A stretch of DNA of 64,000 bases from Chrysomallon squamiferum (taxonomy: Eukaryota > Animalia > Mollusca). The notes beneath the pieces are model-generated. The model did not search any database. It was given only the letters and a program-made list of their open reading frames with translations, and was not told the origin of the DNA. Shown here piece after piece: positions 4,202 through 64,000 of this stretch (the stretch's first letter is position 1; each line of letters begins with the position of its first letter). The DNA lies in assembly GCA_012295275.1 (NCBI GenBank), contig CM022679.1, positions 23,064,001 through 23,128,000 on the forward strand. The letters are read 5' to 3'. Made by a program: the position numbers and the translations under genes.

Positions 4202-6427
4202 CATTAGCACCATAGCAATCACCTTTATGTGCTATCCAAGTTCGTGTACACTTTTATATAACAATCACACGCCATTATATAAACACATACAAGAAAAGTA
4301 CTCCTAAAAAAACTTACATATTTAATAAAGAAATATAACTATTGTGCCAGGCAATGAAATGAATGAAAAGTTAGTATAATACAGGTGTACACTGATTTAT
4401 ATTTGAACAAGATTTCTAAAGAAAGAAATCTAGGTGTGTCTGTGTGTTACCTGAACTGAATCAATGGTCTCTGTTGTGATATGTTACTATGACAATCTTG
4501 ATTGTCATGCTGATATAGTTCAGTGATTGAGTGTATTTATAAACATCAATGTTATGAAACTCTCACTGAAAAGCATATTAAGAAGAAGATGGAAAAACAA
4601 TTAAATCAATAAATAAATAAATAAAAATATTAATAATAATTAAAAAAAATAAAACTTAAACACAAATAATGTAAATTGTAGTAGTATTAAAAAGAAAAAT
4701 TTATACAAAATTTTAATGTATTTTCTTAATGTTCTTTCTTAAAATTAATATGAAGTTTTTTACTGAAAAGTATATGAAGATAAAACAATAGATGTGATAA
4801 AATGCAATGGTTTTAATGGAGAAATAAAAAAAATGATTTAAAATTAAATTCTTAACAGTAATGTCCATTTCTAAAATTAATATTATGAAATCTGTCACTG
4901 AAGGATATTTAAAAAAATAATAATAATAATAATAAATGTTTTATGAAATTAAAGAATTATCAAATAAATTTTCATATTCTTCATATCTAAAAGTTAATAA
5001 TATGAAACTTTTTACTCAAATATGATTATAATATTAATTTAATATGAATTTCAAAAATAAGAAAATAATGATATATATATATATATATATATATAGATTT
5101 TATTTGTTAGTATATGAATGGACGTATGGCTGAAGTATGTATGTATGTTTGTATGTATATGTCTAAATGTCTTTTTAAGTGGGTATGGGATGATATTGTA
5201 TGGGATGATATTTTATAGGCAGGTAAATTTATATTTAAATGCAGCTGTATTATAAAATATGTTTATCTGCTTATCAGAAAGGTTTTACACAATAGTTTAT
5301 ATATTCACCTGTATTTATTTTCACCTGCTTTTCACATTGTCTTTGTTTTCTTTTGTTTTTTTACCAGCTATGCCATGTCCCACAGGTAAATTAATTAGTT
5401 GGTTTTTATTATTTTTGTTGTTGTTTACATTTTGTTATTTTTTTGTTGTTGTTGGGTTTTTTTTTGACACAGGAGGGATTGTTTGTTCATTATTTTATTT
5501 TATTTTATTTTATTTATATTTTATTCATTTTTAATTTTTAAAAAACAATTTATATATTTTTTTTTTATTTTTTTATTTCACTAACCTATTTAATAAGCAT
5601 GTTATTCTATTTGATAACTAATTGTCCACTTCACATTTTATGCTTGTATCACATGATCAGTTTAATTGTTTTAGCTTGTTTATTATGTTAATTAGTATAC
5701 ATTTCATTAATTACCTGGTCATTTATATACTGCTATAATAAATTTTCTAGTTTGCAGTTTCATTCAGTGGCAAAACAAAACCACTTAATTTAGTTATTTA
5801 TGCTACGAAATTAACTTTTATATTTAGAGCAAATTTTCAGCTTATTTTATTTTTCATATTTATTTATTTATTTATTTATTTATTTATTTCAGTTTTTAAT
5901 ATTCATTTCAGTAACATAAATTTAATTTTATTACATTTTATCATTTTATTATTATTAATCTGAGTTAATTATTTATTTTTGTATTCTAGTTATCTGTCCA
6001 TCTATCTGTCTGACTCTCTATCAATTTATCTATCTATTTATTCACACATTCAGATTTGATTTATTTCTTCAGACATCATTTTACAATGTAAATACATTTT
6101 GTATTTCTTCAGATGACTTTTTCACTTATTTCTAACTTATTTGTTAACTTCCAGTATCATTACAGAGATCATTTAGGAAAAGACATAACAAACTTTTCTT
6201 CTTTTTATCACCATACTACAGTGAAATAAAATGATATGCTTTATTACAGAACATTTAACTCAGCTATATCAATAATCTGGATGTATATGAACATTTCAAT
6301 AAAAACATTTATTTAGACTATTTTTTCAGACCATTATATACATTATTATAAATGTAATTATTATTCTGTTAAGAAAAGAATACACATTATATATATTTTT
6401 ACGTTATATTTCTTTAAACTCTTAACA

Positions 6428-7115: not shown

Positions 7116-7854
7116 TGGGTGGGTGTGGTGAACCTACATATACAAATTTATAATATCTCTTAGTCTCTGCATTCTTTTTTAAACACCATTTCACTAATAT
7201 TTATAGTCCATGAAATATAATTTGCTACTGCACACTACACTAAAATTGGTCCGCAATAATTTGACTAATACCAAAAATATATTTTTCCATTCTTTCTAGA
7301 TGTGGACACCCCAAATCGGGCCTGTCAAGCTTTGATTGTAGAGCTTATAAAGGTACAGTACATTTTATTCTTAACAAATATTCATCAGAATTATATATAT
7401 ATAATTCTTAAGATGCATTTTTATTTTTATTATTATTATTGTTGTTGTTGTTGTTATTGTTTCTGTTGTTGATGTTGTTATTTTTATTATTGTTATTATT
7501 ATTACTATTATTGTTGTTTTTGTTGCTGTTATTATTATAATAATAAAATTGTTATTACCATTATCATTATTATTATTATTATGATTATCGTCATAATCAT
7601 TACTTTTGTTGTAGTTATTATTATTATCATTTATTATTATTATTATTATTATTGTTATTGGTATCATTTTTATTATTAATATTGTTGTTACCGTTATCAT
7701 TAGTATTATTATGATTATCATCATCATCATCATTATAATTACTTTCATCATCGTCTTCATCATCATTATTATTATTACTACACTATGATTATTATTATTA
7801 TTATTGTTATTATTATTATTATGATTATTGTTATTATTATTATCATTATTATTA

Positions 7855-18592: not shown

Positions 18593-19171
18593 ATGTACAT
18601 TAATATCACGTTTATTTCAAGTTCTACACAGGGATGTACTCTTTCACCACATGGTAAAAGTAAATTTAATTTTGTGCTCGTCTTTCTTGTGCGTGTAAAC
18701 ATTATAATTATTTCCAAACGATTTCTTAACATCGTTTTCAGTTATTAGGAGCAGTAAAATAATTCATTATAAAGCGTAGCACATTAGCTTTCGATGCGCA
18801 TGTCAGTCTGCGCTTAGCGACAGGTAGTAAATACCAAGCTGTTGCTAGCGCTTGTGGCCAAACCTTCAACATTAACCTTCTCGATATAAAAACGTTATTA
18901 CCCTGAAGAAAATAACGTGCGTACTTGTGACGTTTCCCTTTAAAATGTTCTGTAAAGGTCTTGAAACTTTGCATTGCATCGATAGAATTTTCATTATGCT
19001 TTCATAATTAGATTTTCAAATATTTAATTGGGTCAGACACGTGTTTAGAAACTGTGTACTTCACTAGGAATAGATCGGAAGTTTCGCGTGAATGGGTGGT
19101 GATGAAATTTTATAACTTCTAAAAAAAATATGAATGATTGAATGAATGGATGAACGAACAAAAGGTACGGA
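18593..19171. repeat. tRNA-cluster spacer, copy 1 (near-identical to 24558..25143)
   Basis: Direct alignment by eye; the 78-aa ORFs at 18738 and 24712 differ by one residue. Confidence 0.9.
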
Positions 19172-19223
19172 TGCGTCGGCCGGGAGTCGAACCCGGATCG
19201 ACTGCTTGGAAGGCAACCATGCT
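19172..19223 (-). pseudogene. 3' part (nt 21-72) of a tRNA-Gly(TCC) gene disrupted by a retrotransposon
   Basis: Identical to 25144..25195; abuts the element's poly(A) tail. Confidence 0.93.
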
Positions 19224-19444
19224 TTTTTTTTTTTATCTTTATTAGTATAATCACCAGTTGTACACAATTAAAATAACATTACAGCTGTAAATAACAATAA
19301 CAAAAACTATTTCCTCTCACACACTCAGTCACACTCATTCACACTCACATGCATGCATACTTATTTATTCGGAATATTCATATATATTTACAGTATTTTA
19401 TAGTATTAATTCTTTTATCCATTTCCATGATTTATCTGTATTGA

Positions 19445-22400
19445 TTATTTGTAGCTTTCCAAAGGATATTTGAAAATAAGTATGTCATCTTTTAGTTCTA
19501 GGAAAATATTGTTCTTAACATATTTGTTAATAAAAATTGAAAGTTTGTTTTGAATACGATATTGATTTAGAATGATTTTAAAGCACTGATACATATAATT
19601 TCTAAAAAAAAGTATTATATTGATATTTGTTCCTTTCATTTGAGCTATTACACGCCTTTTGAACACTGTTATTCTATAAATTGAAAGAATAATATTAATA
19701 AATTCTATTGTACTATTTTCAATTTTGAGATAACATCCAAATATTAATAATCTTTTTAATTGTTCTAGAGAAAACCCTGTTTTCTTAAATATATAAATAC
19801 ATATTTCATGAAAGATTGATATTAATTCCTTCAATTCTTCACAATACAAAAATAAATGGCACAAATCTTCATCAGCCTTCAAACACACTGGACATACACT
19901 AGATGAGATTTTGCCATATTTATATAATTTGTTATATGTATATATTATATGATGAACTATTCTAAAATCTAAGTCTATAAATTCAGTAAATTTATCACTA
20001 TAGTGTATCCATTTCCAAACTGGTCTCCAGAATATATTAAAACCAAGCTCATTCCATTTTTCTTCACAAGTTGGTGCTTTAAAGTTTTTTAAAATTAAAA
20101 TAGAATAAATTATTTTAGCTGTAAATTTATTGACATTTATCATTTCATTATTCTGAAACAAAAATAAATCTTTATTAGAAGTTAATTTTTTAGCATTTCT
20201 GTTAATAGCACTTTTCCATTCATCTGGAAGTGATTTCTTAATAACATTGTAAGCTATATAAATTTGGTTTTTGGATAATTCTGGAGATTTTTCATGAATA
20301 ATTTCTACAATAGCTGTAAAAGGAAGAAAACCTGGTATTACTTCATAAGCAATATCAGCCACTTTGACTATTCCACTTTTTATAAAAGAACTAAATAATA
20401 ATAATTTGTTTTTATATTTAATGAATGGATTTTGAAAAAGTGGCTGAGACAATATTTCATCTGTATCAAGTGGGAAATTACGTTCTCCATTATTAACATA
20501 GTCCCAAGCTGATAATATTTCAGCATAAAAAGGATTAATAACTTTTAAAGCTTCTTTACTGTATACTATTTTAAAAATGTCATAATTTAAATTCATATTC
20601 ATATATTTTTCAAGAAATATTGACATTGTATATTTCCACACATTTTTAAAATTATTATCAAAATATTTCTTTAACATTTTTATTCGAAAAGCCATTTTCT
20701 TTAATGAAATATCTTGAATATTTAGTCCACCCGACATTTTATTTCCAATTATTGTTGAATATTTTATTAAAGATGTTTTCCCTTCCCACATAAATTTACA
20801 AAATAATTTATGAATTTCATTTTCTACCCAATTTGGTACATTTATTGTGCTAATGATATACCACAGTCTAGATGTTAATAAAGTATTCCATACTTCAGCT
20901 TTTCCGTGCAAAGTAAGTTTCCTTTGACTCCATAAGTTAATTAGATTAGACATTTTAGCTAATTTATTTTTCCAGTTCAAAGTTTCACATAATAGTTTAT
21001 TTGGTCCTAAATATATACCTAGAATTTTAACATAGTTTTTATTTATTGATATTGGAATGTTAAAGGATAAGTTTTCAATCATGGTTTTACCAAGATAAAG
21101 TACTTCTGACTTATCTACATTGACTTTTGCCCCTGTAGCACTACAATACATATTTATTGTATTAAAAACATTTTCTACTGACTGAGCATCACAGACAGTT
21201 ACTGTAGTATCATCTGCATGCTGAAATAATAAAGAATTAAGTTCATTTGTTATCTTAATTCCATTCATGCTATGTCTTTTTTTTTAAAAATTATTTAAGG
21301 GTTCAGCTACAATAACATAAAGCATCATTGATATTGGACATCCTTGTCTAACCCCTCTTGTAATATTAAAAAAAGGTGTTAAATGTCCATTAATTTTTAC
21401 ACAACTTTTAATATTATTATATAGTATTTTAATCCACTTTATAAAATTATCACCAAAATTGAATTTTTTCAAAACTTTTAAAATAAAACTATGTGATACT
21501 CTATCAAATGCTTTCTCTTGATCTATTTTAACTATATACCCTTCTGTATTATTTAACTCGACAATATCTATAATATCTCTTACTGACATAATATTGTCAG
21601 CAATATCTCTTCCTTTTACACAACAGGTTTGTTCTGATGAAATAATAGTTGACATTACTTGTTTAAGACGATTTGCAAGAACTTTAGCAATAATTTTATA
21701 ATCTACATTTAAAAGGCTGATAGGTCTGAAATTTTTTAGGTCTGCTTTATCTCCTTTTTTCTTGTAAAATAAACTAATTACTCCTTTTTTCATACTGCGT
21801 GACAACATTTCTTCTTTCTGAATTGACATAACTACTTTATGAAAGAAATTTTTAAAATTTTCCCAGAATTTAACATAAAATTCTACTGTTAGACCATCCA
21901 GACCAGGTGATTTATTTCTATTCATTTCTTTTAAAGCTTCAGTTAATTCTTCAATTGTAATGTCTTTCTCACAGTTTTCACTTTCAGATTCTTTTAGTTT
22001 ATTTGATATTAAATTTATTATTTCTTCCTGTTTAATAATATCTACATTTTCTTGCGTAAATAATTTTGAATAAAAGTCATAAGCATATTGTAATATATCT
22101 TCTGTTTTTCTTGTTAATCCATTTACTGTTTTTAGCTCTTTAATAGAATTTGATTCTTGTTTTGATTTTTTCTAAACTGAGAAAAAAATGTGGTATTTCT
22201 ATCCATATCTAGATTCCAATGAGCTTTAGATCTCAAAATAGCACCATTACATTTAGATCTCTCAATTAATTTTAATTTTTTTTCTTCTAAAATTTGTATG
22301 TTACTCAAATCATGATGATTATTTACAGCTAGTTTAGCATATTCTCTTTTCAAAGCATTTTGTATATTATAATATTTTTTCGTTATCTGATTTTCTCTTT

Positions 22401-23338
22401 TTATTGCAAAATTTCTTGCACATGTTTTCATTTTATATTTTAAGTTGTCCCACCAAACACTAGGTTCAGTCTGTAACAAAGGACACTCAGAAGCATTATT
22501 AATAACTTCAATAATAGCTTTACAAAAAAATTCATCTTTCAACAATTCATTATTAAAGATCCAAATACCTTGACCTCTCTCTACATGAGAAAAATCTATT
22601 TTAAGTGATAAAAAATTGTGATCACTAACCGAGGTATAGGATATGTATACATTACTTATAAACTGCAATAAATTTCTAGAAATTAAGAATAAATCAATTC
22701 TTGACTGTTTTATAGTTTTTTTCAACTATTTGAGATCTAGTAAATTGCCTTTTATCTGGATTTCTGTGTCGCCAAATATCAACTAAATTATAATTAAAAA
22801 TAACTGACTGTAATTCATTACTACTTTTTTTTATATTGAAAGTTTTATTATTAATGCCCAAATCTAAATTAGGATCTAAAATGTCATTAAAATCTCCTGC
22901 CATTATTGTATTTTTTAAATCCACAAATTTACATAATCCTTTAAAAAATAAAATTCTTTCTTCAATATTATTTGGTGCATATACATTTATAAAACTGTAT
23001 TCTTCTTCATCTATTTTCGTATTAATTTTTAAAATCCTGCCTTCAGTGTCGCAACTATTAAATGTAAACTTATAAGGACATTCTTTTGATACCAGTATTG
23101 CTACACCCCTTCTTTTTTTATTTGGACAATTATTATAAAATATATTTCCTTCCCATAAATGTTTATATCTCTCAATGAAGTCATTATCCCAAAATGTTTC
23201 CTGTAGAAAAATAATATTTGCATGTTTACTTTTAAATGTTGCAAAAACTGAATTTAATTTCTCAATATCTCTCAGTCCGTTTACATTTATAGACAAGATC
23301 ATAGTTAGAAGTAGAAAAATTAGTGAACTATTACCCAT
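19445..23338 (-). CDS. Retrotransposon ORF2 (apurinic-like endonuclease + reverse transcriptase + C-terminal zinc finger), broken by homopolymer frameshifts
   Basis: APE: SINVNGLRD, IIFLQET, GVAIL, INVYAPN, GDFN, DIWR, SRIDLFL, SDH. RT: KSPGLDGLTVEFY, NFRPISLLNVDYKI, DQEKAFDRVSH, RGVRQGCPIS, QHADD. C-terminus: CPVC...EDLCHLFLYC. Confidence 0.93.
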
Positions 23339-23350
23339 TTTTAAAATATT

Positions 23351-24507
23351 CTATATCTTGTCTATATCCTCCCCATACTCATTCATTACCCTGGCAACAC
23401 TTTCTCTCACACTTTTCATGTGTGCTGCTTGTCTCTTTTTTTTTTTTTCTATTTTCTACCAAGCTCCACAGTTTTCTTCTGATGGACGCTTGATCAATCT
23501 CGTTCGACGCTTTGTTTTACTCTGCTTACTATTTTTCTGCTTCGATGGTTCCAGCTTCCTTGTTAGTAATTTTCACTTTGGTGTTTTTATCAGGGGATTT
23601 TCTTGGTTTTCTCCATTTTCTGATTTTTGTTGTTCCTTGTTGATTTCCATTTCTGTTGTATTTATCCTCTGGATACTTTCTGCTTCAATTTCTTTTTCTC
23701 CTTTGATTTTACATTATATTCCATACCATCACTGTCACTGTCGCTGTTTTTTGTTCATCGCTGTCATACTCTGACCAACACTCACATTCATCCTCTTTGT
23801 TTCCACACTTTTCACACAGAAATATGTTCGGGCAGTTTCTAGCAAAATGTCCTTTTGTTTACAGTTATGACACCTTATATTTGGACAGTCTTTCAACAAA
23901 TGATTATCCGCCATGCAGTTGTAACATACTTTTATTTGATTGTCATGTAAAACACGAAAATATTTTATTCCTTCATAAGTCCTAAATTTCATTGAGTATG
24001 GTAAACTTTTTTATTCCGGGTGGAAATTTCACTCTCACGTATCTTGTTCCATCTGCAATTTTTGTCCCTTTGTATAGCCTTCTATAAATTGGTGATAAAA
24101 TTTCTATTTCCATTTGTTTCAATTTTTCTTCAATTTCTTCATCTTCAATGTAGGCAGGCAAGTGCAAAAAGGAAACTACTACAGTTTCAGATTTCAAAAT
24201 TCTCGCCTTTATTTTTTAGACCTTTCAATTCTGTTTCATCAATTTCCGTAATCATTCTCGCTTGTATAATATCTTCTAGTGTTATTTCATAAGAGTCGGA
24301 TTCTTTCGGTACGCACGCTTTTATCACATCACCCACCTGGCCACTTACAAAATCTATCATGTCGCCTGCTGAAATTTTCTTGTTATCTTCTACATTTACA
24401 ATCACAGTGCATTCTTTTTTAAAAACATTTTTTCTCATTCCTTCTTTTTTTAAATTCATATCTTTCATCTTTTCTTCGTAATTTTCTGATTCTTCCGCCC
24501 AAGACAT
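23351..24507 (-). CDS. Retrotransposon ORF1 (gag-like, CCHC zinc knuckles), broken by frameshifts
   Basis: MSWAEESE start; VVVSFLHLPAYIEDEEI, ADGTRYVRVKFP, (K)SLPYSMKF after a 1-nt correction, CYNCMADNHLLKDC and CHNCKQKGHFARNC (1-nt correction); stop TAG ~12 nt before the ORF2 ATG. Confidence 0.85.
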
Positions 24508-24542
24508 AATACTTAGTTTACAAAACAAAATGTGAAACCTTC

Positions 24543-24554
24543 CACCACCGACGC
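24543..24554 (-). pseudogene. 5' part (nt 1-12, GCGTCGGTGGTG) of the disrupted tRNA-Gly(TCC)
   Basis: Exact match to 25204..25215, directly at the element's 5' junction. Confidence 0.8.
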
Positions 24555-24557
24555 CAC

Positions 24558-25143
24558 ATGTACATCATATCACGTTTATTTCAAGTTCTTCACCGTTACA
24601 CCACCGGATGTACTCTTTCACCATATGGTGAAAGTAAATTGAATTTTGTTTTCGTGTTTGTTGTTCGTGTAAACATTATAATTATTTCCAAACGATTTCT
24701 TAACATCGTTTTCAGTTATTAGGAGCAGTAAAATAATTCATTATAAAGCGTAGCACATTAGCTTTCGATGCGCATGTCAGTCTGCGCTTAGCGACAGGTA
24801 GTAAATACCAAGCTGTTGCTAGCGCTTGTGGCCAAACCTTCAACATTAACCTTCTCGATATAAAAACGTTATTACCCCGAAGAAAATAACGTGCGTACTT
24901 GTGACGTTTCCCTTTAAAATGTTCTGTAAAGGTCTTGAAACTTTGCATTGCATCGATAGAATTTTCATTATGCTTTCATAATTAGATTTTCAAATATTTA
25001 ATTGGGTCAGACACGTGTTTAGAAACTGTGTACTTCACTAGGAATAGATCGGAAGTTTCGCGTGAATGGGTGGTGATGAAATTTTATAACTTCTAAAAAA
25101 TATGAATGATTGAATGAATGGATGAACGAACAAAAGGTACGGA
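24558..25143. repeat. tRNA-cluster spacer, copy 2
   Basis: Near-identical to 18593..19171. Confidence 0.9.
25132..25135 (-). terminator. Pol III terminator (T4) 8 nt downstream of the tRNA; equivalents follow the other two copies
   Basis: Minus strand ...CGCA TCCGTACC TTTT G. Confidence 0.6.
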
Positions 25144-25215
25144 TGCGTCGGCCGGGAGTCGAACCCGGATCGACTGCTTGGAAGGCAACCATGCTAACCG
25201 TTACACCACCGACGC
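25144..25215 (-). tRNA. trnG-TCC: tRNA-Gly (anticodon TCC), intact, 72 nt
   Basis: GCGTCGGTGGTGTAACGGTTAGCATGGTTGCCTTCCAAGCAGTCGATCCGGGTTCGACTCCCGGCCGACGCA: acceptor stem GCGTCGG/CCGACGC, A box TGGTGTAACGG, B box GGTTCGACTCC, loop CT-TCC-AA. Confidence 0.97.
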
Positions 25216-25791
25216 CATATTATGTGCATTTCAGAAATGTGTCCTGACACGGTGTTTTCTTCATCGCAGGCGTTGGAAAGGCAAAAAACACACTGTTACT
25301 ACAATGTGTAAATCGTCCCCGTCTTTGATGCCACACTCCTTCAAAAGCTATCTAAACGCGGAATAACATAACAGGTAACGAAAAAAAAATCTGTTGAAAT
25401 CGTGTTGCTTAAACGTAATATCCGTCGTCTTGAAGGAGGAAGTCCACTTTAGCCCAAAGCTCTTGGCAACACCAAGCTGTTGCTACATGAAGACGCCCTT
25501 TTTCCTCATCTTTCGATTGTTATCACAACACTGACCGGGTGAGTTTTCAGTTGACGTATTTTCTGTGACAATAAATAATATTGTGATTTGTCTTAAGACA
25601 ACTGAAAAGGTTTTGAAGCCTTCGAGTACATGTTCCCTCATACCTTCGTTTCGAGGCTGAATGTTTCGAACACTTTGTTATGATTTATGTGAGTCGGGAA
25701 GGTAACAGCAAGAGAATATTAATCAGTAGTGGACTACAGTCGGACTTGCTGTGGTAAAATGAATGCATTCAAGAAGCAAAATTATTACGGA

Positions 25792-25843
25792 TGCGTCGGC
25801 CGGGAGTCGAACCCGGATCGACTGCTTGGAAGGCAACCATGCT
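25792..25843 (-). pseudogene. 3' part (nt 21-72) of a second disrupted tRNA-Gly(TCC)
   Basis: Identical tRNA 3' part with a different downstream flank, abutting a poly(A) tail. Confidence 0.93.
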
Positions 25844-26070
25844 TTTTTTTTTTTTTTTTATCTTTATTAGTATAATCACCAGTTGTACACAATTAAAATA
25901 AAATTACAACTGTAGATAACAATAATAAAAACTGTTTCCTCTCACACACTCTCACACTCATTCACACTCACATGCATGCATACTTATTTATTCGGAATAT
26001 TCATATATATTTACAGTATTTTATAATATTAATTCTTTTATCCATTTCCATGATTTATCTTTATTGATTA
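25844..26070 (-). mobile_element. 3' end (poly(A) + 3'UTR) of a second copy of the Tx1-like element, truncated by the assembly gap
   Basis: Aligns to 19224..19448 with several substitutions and small indels; 17-nt vs 12-nt T run. Confidence 0.92.
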
Positions 26071-26270
26071 NNNNNNNNNNNNNNNNNNNNNNNNNNNNNN
26101 NNNNNNNNNNNNNNNNNNNNNNNNNNNNNNNNNNNNNNNNNNNNNNNNNNNNNNNNNNNNNNNNNNNNNNNNNNNNNNNNNNNNNNNNNNNNNNNNNNNN
26201 NNNNNNNNNNNNNNNNNNNNNNNNNNNNNNNNNNNNNNNNNNNNNNNNNNNNNNNNNNNNNNNNNNNNNN
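26071..26270. other. Assembly gap (200 N)
   Basis: N run. Confidence 1.
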
Positions 26271-26557
26271 TGCTGCTATTAGAAAAGTAAGAACAAAGGA
26301 AAAATTTCAAGCTATATACTTAATTAATAAAATTTAGTTAATTAATTATTTTATTAAATACTTGCGACTAAATATTAAACAATTTATTTTTATTTAATTA
26401 ATTTTTGTTTCTTATTTTGTGCTGCTGTTGTCAGTGGTGAAGTTGTTGATACAGTATTGTAGTTGTATAATAAAGTCAGTTAGTTTAAAACGTACCTTTA
26501 CTAGTATCAGGATATTGTGATATTTATTTATTTAAATTGTTGTTGTTGTTGTTGTTA

Positions 26558-26602
<45 letters not shown>

Positions 26603-26904
26603 TAGTGTATTATTATTATTGTTACTGTTACTGTTATTGCTATTATTATTATTATTATTATTTTACATTTCTGTATAAGACGTAACTGCCTTCAGTGAAC
26701 TGGAGTTGTTTTCTGTTATCATATTTTATTATTGACTCAGGACAATCATGTCTACGAATTTTTAATTACACATGTTCATGAGAAACAGAATATATTACAG
26801 CATTGTCTAGTAAGACAGTCTCTTGCAAATTTACGGGAAACAAAGGTTTACGAGATTTAGATACAGATATACATGCAAGACCTGACAGTACAGAACACAC
26901 ATTA

Positions 26905-45723: not shown

Positions 45724-45819
<96 letters not shown>

Positions 45820-48674
45820 TGTATTCAGAATATTTTACAGAATCAGTTTTTGTTATTAAAATAGCTAATAATAATACACAAATACTGGTACTCACAGTTA
45901 TATCATAGACTGAATGGTAACCAAGGGTATCTGTGATAAAGTTAAGATAATTTCCTTCTTAAATTAATTAATTAAATAATTAAAACCTGATCAGTTTTGT
46001 TAATGGCAGAGTTGGTTGTATGTATATTATCTAGGAAAACCAAAGATTCCAAACTGATCGTTATTCAAGAGAGGATTCAAATAATATAAAATACAACAGC
46101 TCGAATATAAATTAATATCAGTGTATTTCTACTGTAAAGAAAGTAATATATTTTAACATTATCATATTTTATACGTGGCAAATTAGTCCACTGAGTATAA
46201 CGTACATGAAAATGTCACAAATCTTTATATTTGTGTATCAGAAAATATTCCTAGTTTAATGCAGAGGGAATTAAAGTAACAAAAATAGAATTAATATTAT
46301 AATAGCAACATAAAACCATTTTTTTTTTTTTTTAATTCAAATGTGAGTTGGTCTTATTAAGGAATAGGACATAAAAGTTACTACATGACAAAGATTATCC
46401 TGCAAACAATATACCTAGATGTAGCATGAATACAATTTAGTTAAACTTTATTAGAATAAAATACAAACAAACACACACAATAAATAAATAAATAAATAAA
46501 TAAATAAGGTGTATGGCCTAGGTTATGAGAAAGCAGTTCAGTGCTTTGGCAAGTTTATTTATATCTGTATGTACAGGTAATTTCCGTCACGTGACAGTTA
46601 CCTCGTAATGACGACCCACATACATTTTGTTATCAGTTTCTAATACTGGATCAGTTTGAGTTTTGCTTTTCAGAAATAACGTGATTAGGAATTTAGGTAA
46701 GTTGATAAACATTTCGATAACAGTTTTCTTTGTATAGTAATTTATGTTTGTAATTAAATACTTATGTCTGGAGATAAATCTATATTTTTTTAAATGAATG
46801 AAAATCATTTTAACATTACTTCCTTGTTTTCTCAGCTCATAACGAACCTTTCCTAGTCGATTTTATTGAATTCAGTGGCTCATGTGAAACATGCATAGAC
46901 CTTGGATTTAGTTTTAAAAAAAGGTTTAATAATAAAACTAGTATTCTAAATAATCGTTACGTTATAAACAGATTTACTGTATTCACGTAGTAGAGAAAAC
47001 GACTTTCTTTTGTGTTTGTTACGTGCGACAACGAGAAGGTCACAAATATTCAGCGCTTTGTGTCGCCAACTTAATATCGTTTTAAATAATAGTTGAGTGT
47101 ATAAAATAAATGTTAAGACAAATATTTAAAATTATTAGCTTTCTTCAGATAACGTTATAAAATATTTCCGTGTCATTCTTTTTTTCTTTTTAAGTTTCTG
47201 AAACCGAAACTTGTGTGCACAAAAATATTTCCTGGAACGTTTTAAAACATAATTATTTACTTTTCAGTGCAATGGTAACTTTTATAAAGCAGCATAATGC
47301 TACATTTCTTGTTTACAAATGATTAAATACTACTTATTAAAAAAAGGAAGATTTAAAAAAAAAAAAAAAATGTGAAGATTAAATTGCATTTGATTTATAT
47401 ATTTATTGATCGTTTGTTATTATTATTTCTTTTGTCTGATTTTTTTATCTTTTTTTTGTATTGTTTTTTCTCAATGGCTGTTGATGAATTTAAAGAATCG
47501 AATGGCAGTATCGAGTTTATTATTTATTTATTTATTTATATTTTTTTTACCCATTATATCATTGTACATGAGAGTAATTAATAACATCAAAATAGCTGAT
47601 AATATTAAAATATTATACATCGAGCAAAACAAGGTAAGTTTTTTGATGAGTTATGATTTCCAGTAACTTTAAGGTTCTTGCAAGGTTTCACTTAAGTTTG
47701 TTTGTAGCTTGGTCCACAGTTCAGGGGTAAGCAGTGTCCAGTTTATATACCTCCAGATGTTTTCTATCAGTTTAAAGCATATGCAGACCAATTTTGTTTC
47801 TGAAACATCTAGAATGGTTTATGATGCATCCGAGAAATACGTCAGATGAAATTCTACTGGTATCTTAGAATTTAGATATATATTTTTTATTTGTTTATTT
47901 ATTTATTTATGAGAAGGAATCAGTGAAACTTTTCAGCACTTTTCACAGAGCGATAACAAAAGCTGCTGTTAGACACAATATGAAACGTTCACAGTTTTAC
48001 AAGTTTACTCTGTGTATTCAGAATATTTTACAGAATCAGTTTTTGTTATTAAAATAGCTAATAATAATACACGAATACTGGTACACACAGTTATATCATA
48101 GACTGAATAGTAACCAAGGGCAACTGTGATAAAGATAAGATAATTTCCTTCTTAAATTAATTAATTAATTAATTAAAACCTGATCAGTTTTGTTAATGGC
48201 AGAGTTGGTTTTATGTATATTATCTAGGAAAATCCAAAGATTCCAAACTGATCGTTATTCAAGAGAGGATTCAAATAATATAAAATACAACAGCTCGAAT
48301 ATAAATTAATATCAGTGTATTTCTACTGTAACGAAAGTAATATATTTTAACATTATCATATTTTATACGTGGCAAATTAGTCCACTGAGTATAACGTACA
48401 TGAAAATGTCACAAATCTTTATATTTGTGTATCAGAAAATATTCCTAGTTTAATGCAGAGGGAATTAAAGTAACAAAAATAGAATTAATATTATAATAGC
48501 AACATAAAACAATTTTTTATTTTATTTTATTCAAATGTGAGTTGGTCTTATTAAGGAATAGGACATAAAAGTTACTACATGACAAAGATTATCCTGCAAA
48601 CAATATACCTAGATGTAGCATGAATAAAATTTAGTTAAACTTTATTAGAATAAAATACAAACAAACACACAAAA

Positions 48675-48705
<31 letters not shown>

Positions 48706-50190
48706 GGTGTATGGCCTAGGTTATGAGAAAGCAGTTCAGTGCTTTGGCAAGTTTATTTATATCTGTATGTACAGGTAATTTCCGTCACGTGACAGTTACC
48801 TCGTAATGACGACCCTCATCCATTTTGTTATCAGTTTCTAATACTCGATCAGTTTGAGTTTTGCTTTTCAGAAATAACGTGATTAGGAATTTAGGTAAGT
48901 TGATAAACATTTCGATAACAGTTTTCTTTGTATAGTAATTTATGTTTGTAATTAAATACTTATGTCTGGAGATAAATCTATATTTTTTTAAATGAATGAA
49001 AATCATTTTAACATTACTTCCTTGTTTTCTCAGCTCATAACGAACCTTTTCTAGTCGATTTTATTGAATTCAGTGGCTCATGTGAAACATGCATAGACCT
49101 TGGATTTAGTTTTAAAAAAAGGTTTAATAATAAAACTAGTATTCTAAATAATGGTTACATTATAACCTGATTTACTATATTCACGTAGTAGAGAAAACGA
49201 CTTTCTTTTGTATTTGTTACGTGCGACAACGAGAAGGTCACAAATATTCAGCGCTTTGTGTCGCCAACTTAATATCGTTTTAAATAATAGTTGAGTGTAT
49301 AAAATAAATGTTAAGACAAATATTTAAAATTATTAGCTTTCTTCAGCTAACGTTATAAAATATTTCCGTGTCATTCTTTTTTTCTTTTTAAGTTTCTGAA
49401 ACCGAAACTTGTGTGCACAAAAATATTTCCTGGAACGTTTTAAAACATAATTATTTACTTTTCAGTGCAATGGTAACTTTTATAAAGCAGCATAATGCTA
49501 CGTTTCTTGTTTACAAATGATTAAATACTACTTATTAAAAAAAGGAAGATTTAAAAAAAAAAAAAAAAATGTGAAGATTAAATTGCATTTGATTTATATA
49601 TTTATTGATCGTTTGTTATTATTATTTCTCAGTCTGATTTTTTGTCTTTTTTTTTTTTGTATTGTTTTTTCTCAATGGCTGTTGATGAATTTAAAGAATC
49701 GAATGGCAGTATCGAGTTTATTATTTATTTATTTATTTATTTATTTTTCCCCCATTATATCATTGTACATGAGAGTAATTAATAACATCAAAATAGCTGA
49801 TAATATTAAAATATTATACATCGAGCAAAACAATGTAAGTTTTTTTGATGAGTTATGATTTCCAGTAACTTTAAGGTTCTTGCAAGGTTTCACTTGTTTG
49901 TTTGTAGCTTGGTCCACAGTTCAGGGGTGAGCAGTGTCCAGTTTATATACCTCCAGATGTTTTCTATCAGTTTAAAGCATATGCAGACCAATTTTGTTTC
50001 TGAAACATCTAGAATGATTTATGATGCATTCGAGAAAATCGTCAGATGAAATTCTTCTGGTATCTTAGAATTTAGATATTTTTCTTTTTATTTCTTTATT
50101 TCTTGATGAGAAGGAATCAGTGAAACTTTTCACCAGTTTTCACAGCGCGGTAACAAAAGCTGCTGTTAGACACAATATAAAAAATTCACA
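44982..50190. repeat. Tandem ~2.2-2.4 kb duplication, ~2.3 copies (starts ~44982, 47372, 49571), built from IAP-flank modules
   Basis: Near-identical ORFs at 46587 and 48785 (offset 2198); modules shared with 32160-32870 and 52510-53190. Confidence 0.9.
45610..45816. repeat. 35-bp minisatellite x3.3 followed by (CT)n, present in only one of the tandem units
   Basis: Unit CAGTACAGTGACGTTTTAACAAGATGATTTTCAAC; absent at the paralogous site ~48005. Confidence 0.9.
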
Positions 50191-51394
50191 ATTTATGATT
50201 CTAGTTAAAAATGTGAAAATTAATTAATTAAATCATTTATTTGTTTAGTTCATTTTTATTCATTCACTAATGTATTTTGTTGAATGCGTTATATTTTATT
50301 CAGCAAAAATATAGTAAATTTTATTTATATTACAACTAAATACGTCATTTAAACTTTCTTGTACAGTACATACATCTGTGTTATGCTTGAATAAACCAAC
50401 CCAGATTTAAATCAGCATTTTCTAAATGTATTTAAAATAAAATCAATCCCATTCAGATTACATTATCTTCCTCTCCATATACGTAAAGTGTGTTTCTGAT
50501 TTTTTCTTTTTTCTGCAAACCTGTTACTAAATCGATTATTATGTAATACCAGAAAGTGAAAATATATTCGGACCTGAGTGATCCAGACTGTTTCTTTCTT
50601 AGTAAATTTGGTCGAAGGTTTTAGTCAGTTGACCTCTACTATACTGGACAGAAAAAACCACACACAACATGCAGCCATCTTTAAAGATGACCGCCTAAAG
50701 AGTAGAAAGCTAATAATCTGAAATATCCATCAACCGAGTTCGGACTCTTCAGAACTAACTAAAACAAAAAACTTGAAATTTTCATTAAATTGTTACACAA
50801 ACTCAAAGCTTACAGATCTTGCTCATGGACTATACTGATTTTAATAAAGTTATGAAATATCCAAGTGAAAGAAAAATGATTTAATAAATTATCTGAAAAT
50901 GATAGGGATTTCTGAAAACTCCATGTTTGAGAATTTTACAGTAAAATATACAAGATAAATCAGTTAGCTAAGAATAAAATGTAAAAACAAACTAATAAAG
51001 AAAGAAAGAAACAAAATTTCAGTGAAACTTTTCAGAAATTTTCACAGGGCGGTAACAAAAGCTGCTGTTAGACGCAATATGAAAAGTTCACAGTTTTGCA
51101 AGTGGACTTCGTATATTCAGAATATTTTACAGATTCAGTTTTTGTTATTGTGCCACTATTTAGATCAGTTTTATTCGTGTCAGAGTTGGTTTGATGTATA
51201 ATATCTAGGAAAATCCAAAAATTCCAAATTGACCGCTATTTAATAGCGAGAGTATTCAAATAAATTAAAATATAACATCACTTGTCGACTGTTCTGTCTC
51301 ATCATTCTCACGTCTGAAGATAAATATAAGAAATTCTCTGAAACACGGTTTACCTGAACAAATCTTTAACAATAAATACAATAAAATATAACAG

Positions 51395-52974: not shown

Positions 52975-54141
52975 ACTTCTATTACTACTACTACTATTTT
53001 TTTTCTCATTATATCATGGTTTATAGGAATAGTTATTAACATGAAAACAGCTGATATTAAAATTCACATCGAGCAAAATAAGGTTAGATTGCTGTCCTCG
53101 GCAGTTTTGTTGATGAATTACGATTTCCAGTAACTTTAAGAACTTTAGGTTGTTTGGAGCTTGGTCCACAGGTCAGAGGTAAGCAATGTTGTAATTATAA
53201 ATCCACTTAGTTTATTAAGTTAGTGGAGGGGTGGAATGAAGACAGAAAGAAGGAAGAAAAGGAGAGAGATAAAAAAATCAGAACAAAGAAAAAGAAGGGA
53301 AAAGAAAAAAAATCAGAAATAAAAGTTACTGCCACAGACAGCAATATTTCAAGAGGGGAGGGCGAGGGAGGCTGCTATCCCTAGAACTGACGAAATCCCG
53401 AGCCTTAACCGCCCAAACACCACTGACAAAACGTCCACATACCTAGTGACCATTTTGTCGGCTGCCAAAGTTTTACTGGTGAATGTCTACCTTGCAGCTT
53501 TACGAATAAATTGTCTGTTAAAAATATCTCTAATTTCAACATCAGAACTTCTAGTGTTAGTAGCTCAAGATCAAATCCTCAAAAGTCTTTATATAAAGTA
53601 AATATTACTTTATTTCTTGAGGTTAACAATCAATACATAGAATCAGTTTCTGTAGAAATTTAACACGTTCCAGTGTTGTATTAATAATTATACTAAATTT
53701 AAATTTTATTTAAATTTACAGTTAAAGTACATAACAGAGTGAAATACAGAGTCACAAACATTGAAGGAATACAGAAACCTGAATCTATTTATAGAACAAC
53801 CACGTAAGTAATATGGACTTTTTTCTGATATTAAACTTTATTACGTTAGTTTTACGATTGATAACATAACAGTTTTATTTTACCTCTGGGATTATCTCTG
53901 TCTAGAAATAACAAATAGTGATGTTAAGAAATATTAATTTGTGCGTCGTTTTTTCGCAAACACAAAATCTCTTTTCAAGATTCACCAGATAAATCATGAA
54001 TATAATTGATCCATTTAAATAAAATGAGTGAAAACTGCATTCCATATTTCTACCGTGTAAACAATAACAATATGTCGAACCATACTCCACACACGTTAAT
54101 TCTAAAATGTTTATTTTAATTTCATATTTCTCAAATTACAG

Positions 54142-54192
54142 AGCCAAGTGACAACCAAGTCGAAATGACAGAGAGGAGCATTCAGTCGTCAG
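54142..54192 (+). CDS. IAP-B 51-nt microexon E1: (E)PSDNQVEMTERSIQSS; contains a candidate in-frame ATG
   Basis: TTACAG| ... TCAG|GTAATT; phase 1-1, open. Confidence 0.7.
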
Positions 54193-55448
54193 GTAATTTT
54201 ACACCTTGGAAAACGTAACTAATAAATTGCTTCTCACAAAATCAAATGTTTATTTTAAATTTTTCTCGGTTTCGTAAACAAGTATATACATATAGATATA
54301 TAACTATTTAGCAATACCTATGAAACAAAGAAATCATTGCCTACTTAAACGGACTGTGCATCCAATAAATTAGAATGGGAATAAAATATTGATATCTCGT
54401 AATTTCAGTACCTTACTGTATCCAGCAATGATTTTTACGTGACTCACATCTTTCAATAAAGATACGAACATCAACATCTATAATATATTTCATTTAGTAG
54501 AATAACTGACAGTCATTTCAAATTATTGCAAATATGACAAAGGTCTCCTTCACATCCGTGTTTAAAAATTTATCACAAAAGTTAACCTTGCAAATTTATT
54601 AATATCCGGGTTTCGTATTCAAATAGTTTGTATGTCTGTGACTTTGCGCATTTTTCTAATGTAAATGACTGTTAACTGAATTATATTCTTATAAGCGTAA
54701 GCTCATATTAATTTTACACATTTTATAATTTATTACTACTTTCTTAACGATTAAATGCAGTTCAATCATCCTGTTACAAGATATGTACAATTTAAAAAAA
54801 AATAGCGTTAACAAAGTTTATTAATTTCATGAATTTTGAAAGATAATGAAAGAACACACAATATAGTAATAAATAAATATACTGTTACATGATTAAACCT
54901 TGTTAGTTTAGATTGAAACTTTATATAACAAGTAAACCTCGTTTTATTAAAAAGTAATTTGCATATTCACTCTTCGAGATGATGTCTGACTTGAAAGGAT
55001 TCGTAACCTTTTAACTTTTTTGAAATCATTTTATTTATTTACTTAATTATTTATTTATTTGTCACTTTTATTATTATTATTGAAAGGACCTGTGTGTCGC
55101 ACAATTTGATATATCTGTAAACTCTGTTTCTGAAAAAGTTATCTACAGACACGGAGAAGCGCCTTTAGTATTTTGCATCGTACGTGAAACACGCACATAT
55201 CTAACGAAAACGTTGAATTTCCTACTTAGAAGTCGTCTGTGGATGCTTAGAACAATTCATTCTTACAACTCATAATCTCAATTCTAGACTGACGCGACAA
55301 ATCATGAATATAATTGATCAATTAAAATGAAATGAATGAAAAGTTCATCGAATTTTTCTAATGTAAATTCCTAATAGTGTGACGAAGCACACTTCACAGA
55401 TGTTAATTTTAAAATGTTTATTTTCATTTCATATTTCTCAACTTACAG

Positions 55449-55499
55449 AGCTATATCCTTTTGATTTCGGAACCAGAAAGAAGATCAATCGCCGATCAG
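55449..55499 (+). CDS. IAP-B 51-nt microexon E2: (E)LYPFDFGTRKKINRRS
   Basis: TTACAG| ... TCAG|GTATTT; phase 1-1, open. Confidence 0.7.
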
Positions 55500-56989
55500 G
55501 TATTTTTACACCTTTTTAAAAATTATTCGTTTTTTACTTTATTTTAGATTCATAAGAAAAGAGTACGTATGTATATATATATATATTTAACAGGACATGT
55601 GAAAGAAAGAAACAATTGCCTAGGTACACGGTCTATACATCCAATAATTCAGCATGGTAATAAAATATTAATATCTCGTAATTTCAGTAGCTTAGAGGAC
55701 CCTGCCCTGATTAGTACGTGACTCATACCTTTCAATAAAGATACGAACATCAACATCTGTAGTGTATTTCAGTTAATAGAATGTTTGTGTCATTTCAAAT
55801 TATTGCAAGTCATACAAAATGTCTCCTTCACTTCCTTGTTTCAAAATTTATCACAAACGTTAACCTTGCAATTTCATTAATATCCCGATTTCGTTTTCAA
55901 ATAGTTTGAGTGTCTGTGACTTTGTGCATTTTTCTAATTTAAATGACTACTATATGAATTATATTCTTATAATCGTAAGCTCATATTAATTTTACATCTT
56001 TTATTTGGCGTTACCACTTCTTTTCTTCTGAAATTACAATTCTAGCCTAGGAACTAACGGAAATTCTGCCACAGAAAATTTGTTCATAATTTAATACAGT
56101 TCAATCATCCTATTACAAGATATGTACAATTTAAAAAAATAATATCGTTCACAAAGTTTGTAAATTTCAGGAGTTTTGAAAGATAATGAAAGAACACACA
56201 ATATATTAATAAATAAATATACTGTTAGATGGTTAAACCTTGTTAGTTTAATTTCAACCTTTAGGTAACAACTGACCCTCGTTTTATTAAAAAGTAATTG
56301 GTATATTCGACGTTGGAAATGATATCTGACTTTAAAGGATTCGTAACCTTTAAACTTTTTTGAAAGGACCTGTGTGTCGCACCATTTCATATATCTGTAA
56401 ACTCTGTTACTCACGAAGTTATCTGCAGACACGGAGAAGCGCCTTTAGTATTTTGTATACTAGGTGAAACACGCACATATCTAACGAAAACGTTCAATTT
56501 TTATCTCGAAGTCGTCTGTGGATGCTTAGAACAATTCATTCTTACAACTCGAAATCTCAATTCTAGACTGACGCGACAAATCATGAATATACTTGATCCA
56601 TTTAAATAAAATGAGTGAAAACTTCATCGAATTTTTCTAATGTGAAATCATAACAGTGTGACGACCTTAGTGGTGTACTTAGTGAAATAAGAACAACAGA
56701 ACTTGCATCTGGAGGTATATTCTAGGTTTATTCTATTACATTTTATTTATTTATTTATTTATCACTTTTATTATTATTATTATTGAAAGGATCCGTATAT
56801 CACACCATTTGATAAATCTGTAAACTCTGTTTCTCACAAAGTTATTTGCAGACACGAAGAAACGCTATTTGTATTTTGCATCGTAAGTGAAACATATTTG
56901 AATGTAAAATCAAAACAGTGTGACGAGTCACACTTCACAGATGTTAATTTTAAAATGTTTATTTTAATTTCATATTTCTCAAATTACAG

Positions 56990-57040
56990 AGCCAATTGAT
57001 AAGCAGGTGGAAATCATAGAGGAGGACATTGATCTATCAG
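56990..57040 (+). CDS. IAP-B 51-nt microexon E3: (E)PIDKQVEIIEEDIDLS
   Basis: TTACAG| ... TCAG|GTATTT; phase 1-1, open. Confidence 0.7.
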
Positions 57041-57984
57041 GTATTTTTACACCTTCTTAAACGTAACTGATAAAGGGATTGTCATAAAATTAATCGTTTT
57101 TTTCTTTATTTTAGATTCATAAGAAAAGAGTACGTATGTATATATATATATTTAACAGTACCTGTGAAAGAAAGAAACAATTGCCTAGGTACTCGGTCTA
57201 TATATCCAATAATTCATCATGGTAATAAAATATTGATATCTCGTAATTTCAGTAGCTTACAGGACCCTGCCCTGATTATTACGTAACTCATACCTTTCAA
57301 TAAAGATACGAACATCAACATCTGTAGTGTATTTCAGTTAATAGAATGTTTGTGTCATTTCAAATTATTGCAAGTCATACAAAATGTCTCCTTCACTTCC
57401 TTGTTTCAAAATTTATCACAAACGTTAACCTTGCAATTTCATTAATATCCTGGTTTCGTTTTCAAATAGTTTGTATGTCTGTGACTTTGTGCATTTTTCT
57501 AATTTAAATGACTGCTATATGAACTATATTCTTATAATCGTAAGCTCATATTAATTTTACAACTTTTATTTTGCGTTACCACTTTTTTTCTTCTGAAATT
57601 ACAATTCTAGCCTATGAACTAACGGAAATTCTGCCACAGAAAATTTGTTTCGGATTAAATACAGTTGAACCATCCTATTACTTGATATGTACAATTCAAA
57701 AAAAAAAAAAAAAAAAAATTTGGCGTTCACAAAGTCTGTAAATTTCAGGATTTTTGAAAGATAATGAAAGAACACACAATATAGTAATAAATAAATATAC
57801 TGTTACATGATTAAACCTTGCTAGTTTAGTTTGAAACTTTATATAACAAGTAAACCTCGTTTTATTAAAAAGTAATTTGCATATTCACTCTTCGAAATGA
57901 TGTCTGACTTGAAAGGATTCGTAACTATTTAACTGTTTTGAAATTATTTTATTTATTTACTTAATTATTTATTTATTTATTCAT

Positions 57985-58019
<35 letters not shown>

Positions 58020-58433
58020 TATTTATTTATTTATTTATTTATTTATTTGTCACTTTTATTATTATTATTGAAAGGAGCTGTGTGTCGCACAATTTGATAT
58101 ATCTGTAAACTCTGTTTCTGAAAACGTTATCTGCAGACACGGAGAAGCGCCTTTAGTATTCTGTATCCTAGCTGAAACACGCACATATCTAACGAAAACG
58201 TTCAATTTTCTACTGAGAAGTCGTCTGTGGATGCTTAGAACAATTCATTCTTACAACTCATAATCTCAATTCTAGACTGACGCGACAAATCATGAATTAA
58301 TTGATCCATTTAAATAAAGTGAGTGAAAACTTCATCGAATATTTCTAATGTAAAATCATAACAGTGTGACGAAGTACACTTCACAGATGTTTTGTAAAAT
58401 GTTTATTTTAATTTACTATTTTTCAAATTACAG

Positions 58434-63418: not shown

Positions 63419-63707
63419 TGCTGCTATTAGAAAAGTAAGAACAAAGGAAAAAATTTCAAGCTATATACTTAATTAATAAAATTTAGTTAATTAATTATTT
63501 TATTAAATACTTGCGACTAAATATTAAACAATTTATTTTTATTTAATTAATTTTTGTTTCTTATTTTTGTGCTGCTGTTGTCGGTGGTGAAGTTGTTGAT
63601 ACAGTATTGTAGTTGTATAATAAAGTCAGTTAGTTTAAAACGTACCTTTACTAGTATCAGGATATTGTGATATTTATTTATTTAAATTGTTGTTGTTGTT
63701 GTTGTTA

Positions 63708-63755
<48 letters not shown>

Positions 63756-64000
63756 TAGTGTATTATTATTATTATTGTTACTGTTACTGTTATTGCTATT
63801 ATTATTATTATTATTATTATTTTACATTTCTGTATAAGACGTAACTGCCTTCGAGTGAACTGGAGTTGTTTTTCTGTTATCATATTTTATTATTGACTCA
63901 GGACAATCATGTCTACGAATTTTTAATTACACATGTTCATGAGAAACAGAATATATTACAGCATTGTCTAGTAAGACAGTCTCTTGCAAATTTACGGGAA
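63419..64000 (+). repeat. Near-identical copy of 26271..~26840 (offset 37,148 bp)
   Basis: tgctgctattagaaaagtaagaacaaagg...ctcttgcaaatttacgggaa; only a few 1-nt and microsatellite-length differences. Confidence 0.95.

Follow-up and report, generated by a model that had tools for sequence, protein, structure and literature searches.

A LINE of the L1 group joined to nucleotide 21 of tandem tRNA-Gly(TCC) genes in Chrysomallon squamiferum, with a relative at the same position of a tRNA-Asp(GTC) gene

Introduction

Long interspersed nuclear elements (LINEs) of the Tx1 clade are described as having targets in U2 small nuclear RNA (snRNA) genes (Keno), U5, 5S ribosomal RNA (rRNA) genes (Mutsu), microsatellites and transposons, and Kojima's criterion for a sequence-specific family is that more than 20% of the flanks lie in one target type (PMC4494074). 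Dewa is described as inserting into the spacer of tRNA-Leu arrays (PMC3706591). Here we describe a LINE with an apurinic/apyrimidinic endonuclease-like (APE) domain and a reverse transcriptase (RT), found joined to nucleotide (nt) 21 of tRNA-Gly(TCC) genes in a stretch of 64,000 nucleotides from the mollusc Chrysomallon squamiferum (GCA_012295275.1, contig CM022679.1, positions 23,064,001 to 23,128,000), hereafter called the window. Like the Tx1-clade families it is an APE-RT LINE with a poly(A) tail and, likely, a fixed site in a multicopy small-RNA gene, and its lineage has a hairpin of the length found in Tx1L. Unlike the Tx1 families named above, the lineage has its site in the tRNA body between nt 20 and 21, occurs in two isotypes and lacks target bases at its 5′ junctions. 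It thus differs from Keno and Mutsu, the target being a tRNA rather than U2 snRNA or 5S rRNA, and it is set apart from Dewa, as that family is described, by lying in the tRNA body and not in the spacer of a tRNA-Leu array.

LINEs inside tRNA genes are described in the NeSL group, namely LIN15_SM (planarian, tRNA-Arg), LIN25_SM (tRNA-Glu) and NeSL-1_TV (tRNA-Pro), and the site of LIN15_SM is the same in tRNA-Arg genes with four different anticodons (PMC4640811). LIN15_SM resembles the window element in occupying a fixed base of a tRNA, which resumes 3 nt downstream of the site of the window element. However, NeSL-group LINEs have a restriction-like endonuclease, whereas the window element combines an N-terminal APE domain with an RT of the L1 group, and both the base and the tRNAs are different; the two are convergent and unrelated. 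The DNA transposon group Dada is described as having fixed sites inside tRNA genes, many of them at nt 8–13 in the A box, with families that shift between similar isotypes and copies in tRNA-Gly (PMC3706591, PMC8869645). It shares fixed tRNA sites and isotype shifts with the lineage described here, but has a DDE transposase and 6–7 bp duplications, lacks RT and poly(A), and uses a different site. TRE5-A of Dictyostelium is likewise a tRNA-associated retrotransposon without long terminal repeats, but it is described as inserting at a distance via a host factor (PMC3706591). No APE LINE inside tRNA bodies was found in the literature that we searched; Repbase and some supplementary lists lay outside that scope, and a family of this kind may already be recorded there. 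Few site-specific LINEs exist, and there is demand for them as tools for gene insertion at fixed harmless sites.

Results

The single intact tRNA gene in the window is a tRNA-Gly(TCC) gene on the minus strand (Table 1). Two further pieces of this gene, both comprising nt 21–72 and both 100% identical to the intact copy, each follow AATAAAGAT and an A-run when read along the minus strand, so that in copies 1 and 2 of the element the A-tail meets tRNA nt 21 with the element in the orientation of the tRNA. The tail is 11 nt long in copy 1 and 16 nt in copy 2, and one further A is possibly A21 of the tRNA; as A21 can belong to tail or target, the position of the junction is certain to within one base. 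The original prediction, made from these letters, held that one gene is intact, that two nt 21–72 pieces abut poly(A) at the same junction and in the same orientation, and that copy 1 ends at tRNA nt 1–12. Sequence comparison confirmed both statements, the latter at 24543–24554. The further claim that both copies use an identical target nucleotide stands in so far as both lie at nt 21, with the one-base ambiguity just mentioned. GCATGG follows 2 of the 35 A-runs of at least 10 nt in the window, and both are element ends; the motif GGT(G/T)AG(C/T)AT has a single occurrence in the window, inside the intact tRNA. That LINE ends are joined to tRNA-Gly nt 21 is a confirmed observation.

At its 5′ junction the window copy has lost 8 target bases. 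We considered whether GAAGGTT at this junction is decayed tRNA nt 13–20 and rejected it: among contigs from public runs (4 of the 14 listed runs were compared, by their best-supported rows), a variant in run X1 has GGAAAGGTTT behind non-tRNA sequence, so that GAAGGTT likely belongs to the element itself. Nearby in the spacer, tRNA nt 5–19 are present as a displaced copy, which covers most of the target bases missing at the junction and is not found in the other copy of this spacer at 18593–18700. The dominant spacer contig of run X6 has a 9-nt deletion where the displaced copy sits.

A relative of the element occupies the same position in a different tRNA. Starting from an alignment of 20 homologues we collected 34 loci from genome contigs and, from metagenomes, the top 80 of 562 confirmed loci, and the close clade among these 114 loci comprises three, L081, L082 and L083. 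L081 is 97% identical to protein P0002 and 72.6% identical in DNA to the window element over 3862 bp, its open reading frame 2 (ORF2) being about 67% identical to that of the window element. Its contig holds 35 tRNA-Asp(GTC) genes in units of about 498 bp. The poly(A) of L081 joins AGTATCCCC, which is tRNA-Asp from nt 21 onward, in the orientation of the tRNA, and the truncated 5′ end joins tRNA-Asp nt 1–10, with 7–10 target bases lost. The two targets, GGTT^AGCAT (Gly, window) and GGTG^AGTAT (Asp, L081), share 7 of 9 bases. By our own arithmetic, an insertion within a 498-bp array unit would meet the same base and strand by chance in about 2 of 996 cases, given that it falls in the array. Amplifying one insertion with one array does not explain the same site in another tRNA isotype and another family. 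L081 is therefore the strongest evidence for a fixed tRNA site, although it is a single locus with a single junction; all three junctions, taken from the window and L081 and not from a genome-wide set, are at tRNA nt 21. The original prediction had the element recognizing the body of tRNA-Gly. A body site at nt 20/21 is supported by L081, but the site is not peculiar to tRNA-Gly, and from the sequences compared the target appears to be a D-loop position common to at least two tRNA isotypes.

The sequences of L082 and L083 (66–68% relatives) stop before the 3′ junction, and no tRNA was found at the 5′ end of L082. The genome contig G001:C35 has one copy with an intact junction and otherwise only an old fragment, and at the distant element on G001:C55 no tRNA was found. 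A scan of viral contigs for related loci gave 24 pattern matches, none of which was confirmed.

The window element has the layout of the Tx1 clade and the L1 group: ORF1 with a zinc knuckle (PF00098 in Pfam, within the piece 23738–24010), ORF2 with an N-terminal APE domain, RT and a C-terminal cysteine motif, and poly(A). The APE catalytic motifs N, E, Y and D-x-N are all present in copy 1, and the pieces of its ORF1 match the intact ORF1 of L082 at 38–60% in three pieces; PF13966 and a second RT piece scored below the curated Pfam cut-off. Copy 1 carries an in-frame stop in ORF2 at 21284–21286 and a frameshift near 22716 that crosses the predicted target-reading hairpin of the APE domain, and since the reading frames of the window copy are broken, P0002 (a 67% relative) was used as a stand-in query. 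ORF2 is nearest to the L1 group, P0002 giving E 5e-88 with human L1 ORF2p and E 2e-15 or weaker with R2 proteins. At E ≤1e-20 there were 2327 homologues among 7988 scored candidates, the closest at 63–68% identity and the closest named ones, from Mytilus and Patella, at about 40%, a weak pointer to an animal and possibly molluscan host. Several members of the clusters of P0002, P0003, P0005, P0013 and P0068 lie on contigs of equal size (for example 88385 and 51390 bp) or have neighbouring Patella locus tags, which suggests clustered insertions in arrays.

Dominant contigs of the public runs differ from the window at 21284–21287, 22166, 22182, 22716, 23852 and 24212. These differences fall on the frame breaks of the window copy, so that the common copies of the element likely have open frames. 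In run X1 a well-supported loose end at 24523 shows another 5′ end, with non-tRNA sequence before a shared GGAA(A)GGTTT; the window copy may be slightly truncated at its 5′ end, and the alternative end may be a true 5′ untranslated region (UTR) or may come from a sibling family with another target. In RNA run X8, contigs cover 19235–24518 and almost none cover the spacers, at most a weak hint of element transcription, as this is one unstranded study in which DNA is possibly present. We rejected transcription from the RNA polymerase III (pol III) promoter of the host tRNA by inference, since the B box is displaced by 5 kb and T-runs follow at once.

Table 1. Features of the tRNA-Gly array and of the two element copies (positions in the window)
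Feature	Positions	Strand	Source
Spacer X, second copy, following the tRNA that copy 1 interrupts	18593..19171	-	
tRNA-Gly(TCC) nt 21–72, 3′ half of the host gene that copy 1 interrupts	19172..19223	-	
LINE copy 1, about 5.3 kb: ORF1, ORF2, 3′UTR and poly(A), with frameshifts and one in-frame stop	19224..24542	-	
Copy 1, 3′UTR and 11-nt A-tail, with the end AATAAAGAT(A)n	19224..19444	-	
ORF2, RT (PF00078, E 2e-27) and C-terminal zf-RVT part	19445..22171	-	Pfam
ORF2, APE endonuclease domain (PF03372, E 3e-8)	22697..23338	-	Pfam
ORF1, starting MSWAEE, in frameshifted pieces; lower end approximate	23350..24507	-	
tRNA-Gly nt 1–12 at the 5′ junction of copy 1; nt 13–20 missing	24543..24554	-	
Spacer X of the tRNA-Gly array	24558..25143	-	
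Displaced copy of tRNA-Gly nt 5–19, 37 nt before the 5′ junction	24592..24606	-	
Intact tRNA-Gly(TCC), empty target	25144..25215	-	ARAGORN and Rfam
Spacer Y of the array	25216..25791	-	
tRNA-Gly nt 21–72, host gene of copy 2	25792..25843	-	
LINE copy 2: A-tail (16 nt) and 3′UTR, cut by a 200-N gap at 26071	25844..26070	-	

The endonuclease of L081, which is 66% identical to that of the window element, has a hairpin of 11 residues that aligns without a gap to the grafted Tx1L loop in PDB 2v0r, whereas L1 needs a 2-residue gap. 2v0r is also the best match, with 77.5 bits against 68.7 for the plain L1 endonuclease (L1-EN). Among 24 proteins examined, the hairpin has 11 residues in all 14 in which the pattern matched. 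The endonuclease of Tx1L is described as nicking its own target almost exclusively in vitro (PMC1950540).

We built an RT tree from 34 rows picked from 133, and a FastTree tree from all 133 rows, both without an outgroup and without named Tx1 or L1 references; five rows of the RT tree are of unusual composition and L101 is on a long branch. The window element, L081, L082, P0003, P0157 and P0164 form one clade (100/100; SH 0.999 in FastTree), nested among Mytilus and Patella proteins; this wider group has the 5S-associated L084 and L001 as its sister (96/91), and the tree of 133 rows agrees with that of 34. Elements at a Keno-type U2 site, and others in 5S, U5 and U1 genes, serve in the tree as proxies for Tx1. 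The U2-site elements form a separate clade, about 33–35% identical to the tRNA lineage, and L084 and L001 are 34–39% identical to it.

An A-run of at least 9 nt follows ORF2 in 27 of the 114 loci. It leads into tRNA nt 21 at one locus (L081), into U2 at 4, into U5 at 7 (one contig), into 5S rRNA at 1, into 5S-like sequence at 2 (the one tested failed Rfam) and into other sequence at 12. The seven in U5 (L101–L104, L108, L112 and L113) are copies of a single element, all sharing one insertion site in a tandem array of U5 snRNA genes on an 82-kb contig. The U2 junctions, placed approximately, resemble the site used by Keno and Utopia; Keno is described as sharing its site with Utopia, with U2 resuming at nt 39 (PMC4640811). 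Three further loci, L004 (6100–6146), L085 (4740–4800) and L087 (7715–7750), are Tx1-like elements with a short A-tail that runs directly into the beginning of U1 snRNA genes, within arrays that mix U1, U2 and 5S; a list of 2015 gives Dada-U1 as the only U1-targeting element (PMC4640811). The poly(A) of L084 joins 5S rRNA (4400–4534) and the 5′ end of L001 joins 5S sequence (1–130). A more distant relative, L106, ends a few bases before tRNA-Gln(CTG) in a mixed Gln/Gly tRNA cluster (7590–7683), a Dewa-like placement. The 3′ end AATAAA...GAT(A)n is common to L084, the window element and L081. Several bacterial genome bins (G001:C35, G004, G005 and others) include contigs of animal type that carry LINEs together with arrays of tRNA or snRNA genes, with 48 matches in G004 and 61 in G005, which points to host contamination or mis-binning.

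In the window, the array has two kinds of spacer, X (586 bp) and Y (576 bp), without long mutual similarity. The flank of copy 1 is spacer X, the type also found after the intact gene. The two copies of X differ by 1 substitution and 1 gap over 469 bp and are 89.7% identical over the last 110 bp or so; the similarity stops at 18593, and there is no further tRNA beyond. At least half of the sequence words of the window are present in nine public runs from three studies, and three DNA-type runs contain a joint from 25229 to 24565, by which the tRNA and spacer X make up a 665-bp tandem unit. We considered a 640-bp direct repeat as a giant target-site duplication and rejected it, as tRNA nt 1–12 lies within the repeat and the runs show the 665-bp unit. 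Contig depth, which is not equal to copy number, was 55.6 (X1), 341.9 (X3) and 2718.9 (X6) for the X unit, 49.3, 257.4 and 2093.9 on the Y side of the intact gene, and about 100–118, 191–305 and 1807–2371 for the dominant element contig. The element is thus roughly as abundant as the array units, and, were all its copies in the array, between a third and half of the units would be occupied. No contig spanning the 3′ junction of the window itself is among the best-supported public-run contigs listed. The bin with the 3′UTR of copy 2 has depths of 3.1 (X1), 15.3 (X3) and 948.5 (X6), and this low depth marks the type of copy 2 as a minority.

Copy 2 is visible for 227 bp before the gap. The 3′UTRs of the two copies differ at 7 of 210 aligned bases and by one 2-nt gap (96.7% identity), so that the predicted differences in 3′UTR and tail length were borne out (3.3% divergence; 11 and 16 nt). 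From the different 3′ flanks it had also been concluded that the insertions are separate. The flanks do differ, one being spacer X and the other spacer Y, but the 52 identical tRNA bases between junction and spacer could let array recombination swap spacers, and independent origin is, on these sequences, likely and not shown.

Discussion

We consider it probable that this APE-RT LINE belongs to the L1 group, and within it likely to the Tx1 clade, and that it is sited between nt 20 and 21 of tandem tRNA genes, likely by an endonuclease that reads the D-loop. Direct reading of GGT(T/G)AG(C/T)AT is our best guess and not a result; the endonuclease is predicted to recognize this sequence via its 11-residue hairpin. 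Target-primed reverse transcription is established for APE LINEs, and here a bottom-strand nick opposite nt 20/21 would allow the RT to copy the element RNA from its poly(A). The absence of target bases at the 5′ junctions suggests cutting or trimming of the second strand 7–10 nt upstream, which would delete target and leave no duplication. The 3′ half of the A box would be removed in the process, and with it the host tRNA gene is likely dead, a loss that would be tolerated owing to the multicopy array. The lineage would then have switched or spread between tRNA isotypes that share the motif.

A number of points weigh against this reading. The hairpin of TRAS1 also has 11 residues, so the length is not specific to Tx1, and a grafted Tx1L loop is described as failing to transfer specificity (PMC1950540). 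A similar loop is present in the 5S-associated relatives, and taken together these points indicate that the loop alone does not explain the target. Membership in the Tx1 clade is likely but is judged through proxies. There are only three junctions, the cross-isotype case is one locus, and one of the three close-clade loci holds a 3′ end. Scans for the junction pattern yielded nothing beyond L081, with no match in metagenome contigs, none in viral contigs and one in 5 genomes, which was L081 itself. In addition, long contigs of high depth with 0–8 differences fit array amplification as well as fresh jumps.

This last point leads to an alternative that we hold to be rather unlikely, namely that the window copies, and most copies in the genome, stem from one or a few insertions multiplied with the array by unequal crossing-over. 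Such a history is compatible with site-specificity and denies only that the two insertions are independent. The high depth of the tandem unit of tRNA and spacer X speaks for it, as do the near-identity of the dominant element contigs, their depth of the same order as that of the array units, and the 52-base tRNA stretch across which spacers could be exchanged. Against it, the 3′UTRs have diverged by 3.3% while the copies of spacer X show a single substitution in 469 bp, tail length is 11 nt in one copy and 16 nt in the other, two different types of spacer are involved, and run X1 shows a 5′ end unlike that of the window copy and T-runs longer than those of the window. An artefact of assembly, in which the junctions arise from a collapsed repeat beside a scaffold gap, is very improbable. 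There is a 200-N gap at 26071, the sequence after it (26271–26839) is 97.6% identical to the last 580 bp of the window (63419–64000), a repeat or a scaffolding artefact, and several frame breaks of the window are single-base indels not present in the dominant contigs; yet the same type of junction occurs in an unrelated record with another tRNA, and the nine runs of three studies each hold at least half of the sequence words of the window, though one of these runs may itself be the source of the window.

The main mechanistic rival accepts a specific site but has the element placed by contact with a pol III factor, such as TFIIIC on the A box, at a fixed distance from that box rather than by reading of the sequence. 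The site does directly follow the A box in both tRNAs, and factor-mediated targeting near tRNA genes is known for TRE5-A, but factor-tethered elements are described as inserting away from their targets and not at a fixed internal base (PMC3706591). The Gly and Asp targets moreover share most bases around the site, and relatives target U2, U5 and U1, which are pol II genes, so the lineage needs no pol III factors for specificity. We regard such tethering as unlikely, and less likely than direct reading. A merely loose preference, such as L1-like nicking where a T precedes a purine, with copies surviving in tRNA arrays by chance and through purifying selection elsewhere, could gain from the small sample of three junctions. 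It is nevertheless improbable: it would have to produce the same base and strand in two isotypes for two families that are 33% diverged, at the chance rate given above. Sites of the L1 type are far more numerous in the AT-rich spacers than in the tRNA body, and the relatives are grouped by specific small-RNA targets.

Returning to direct reading of the D-loop, a wider proposal can be put forward tentatively, and we think it possible but somewhat doubtful: that an undescribed APE LINE lineage reads the edge between D-loop and A box, that it has moved among isotypes (Gly, Asp, and predictably Gln and other GGTTAG tRNAs) in one register, that it is active and may fill a third to half of the tRNA-Gly units of its host, and that it is a tRNA counterpart of R2 in ribosomal DNA. 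With an APE-type family inserting at a single base of tRNA genes, the Tx1 group would gain a target class. Endonucleases that are 66% identical and use the same register in two tRNAs, beside sister groups at 5S, U2, U5 and U1, offer a route to the residues that set the target and to any need for host factors, and a lineage in two isotypes would, if true, be a natural series for studying target change in APE endonucleases. The D-loop motif is also present in tRNA-Asp and tRNA-Gly genes of vertebrates, and the element might therefore function in other species. Should the rough depth ratios be right, much of the tRNA-Gly gene set of the host would be inactivated, which bears on tRNA gene counts in such genomes.

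Other features of the window

Away from the array, the segments 45815–50194 and 54056–58433 of the window contain a 2.2-kb tandem duplication (96.7%) and a set of 1.3–1.5-kb repeats, and additional dispersed repeats lie between 32000 and 63000.

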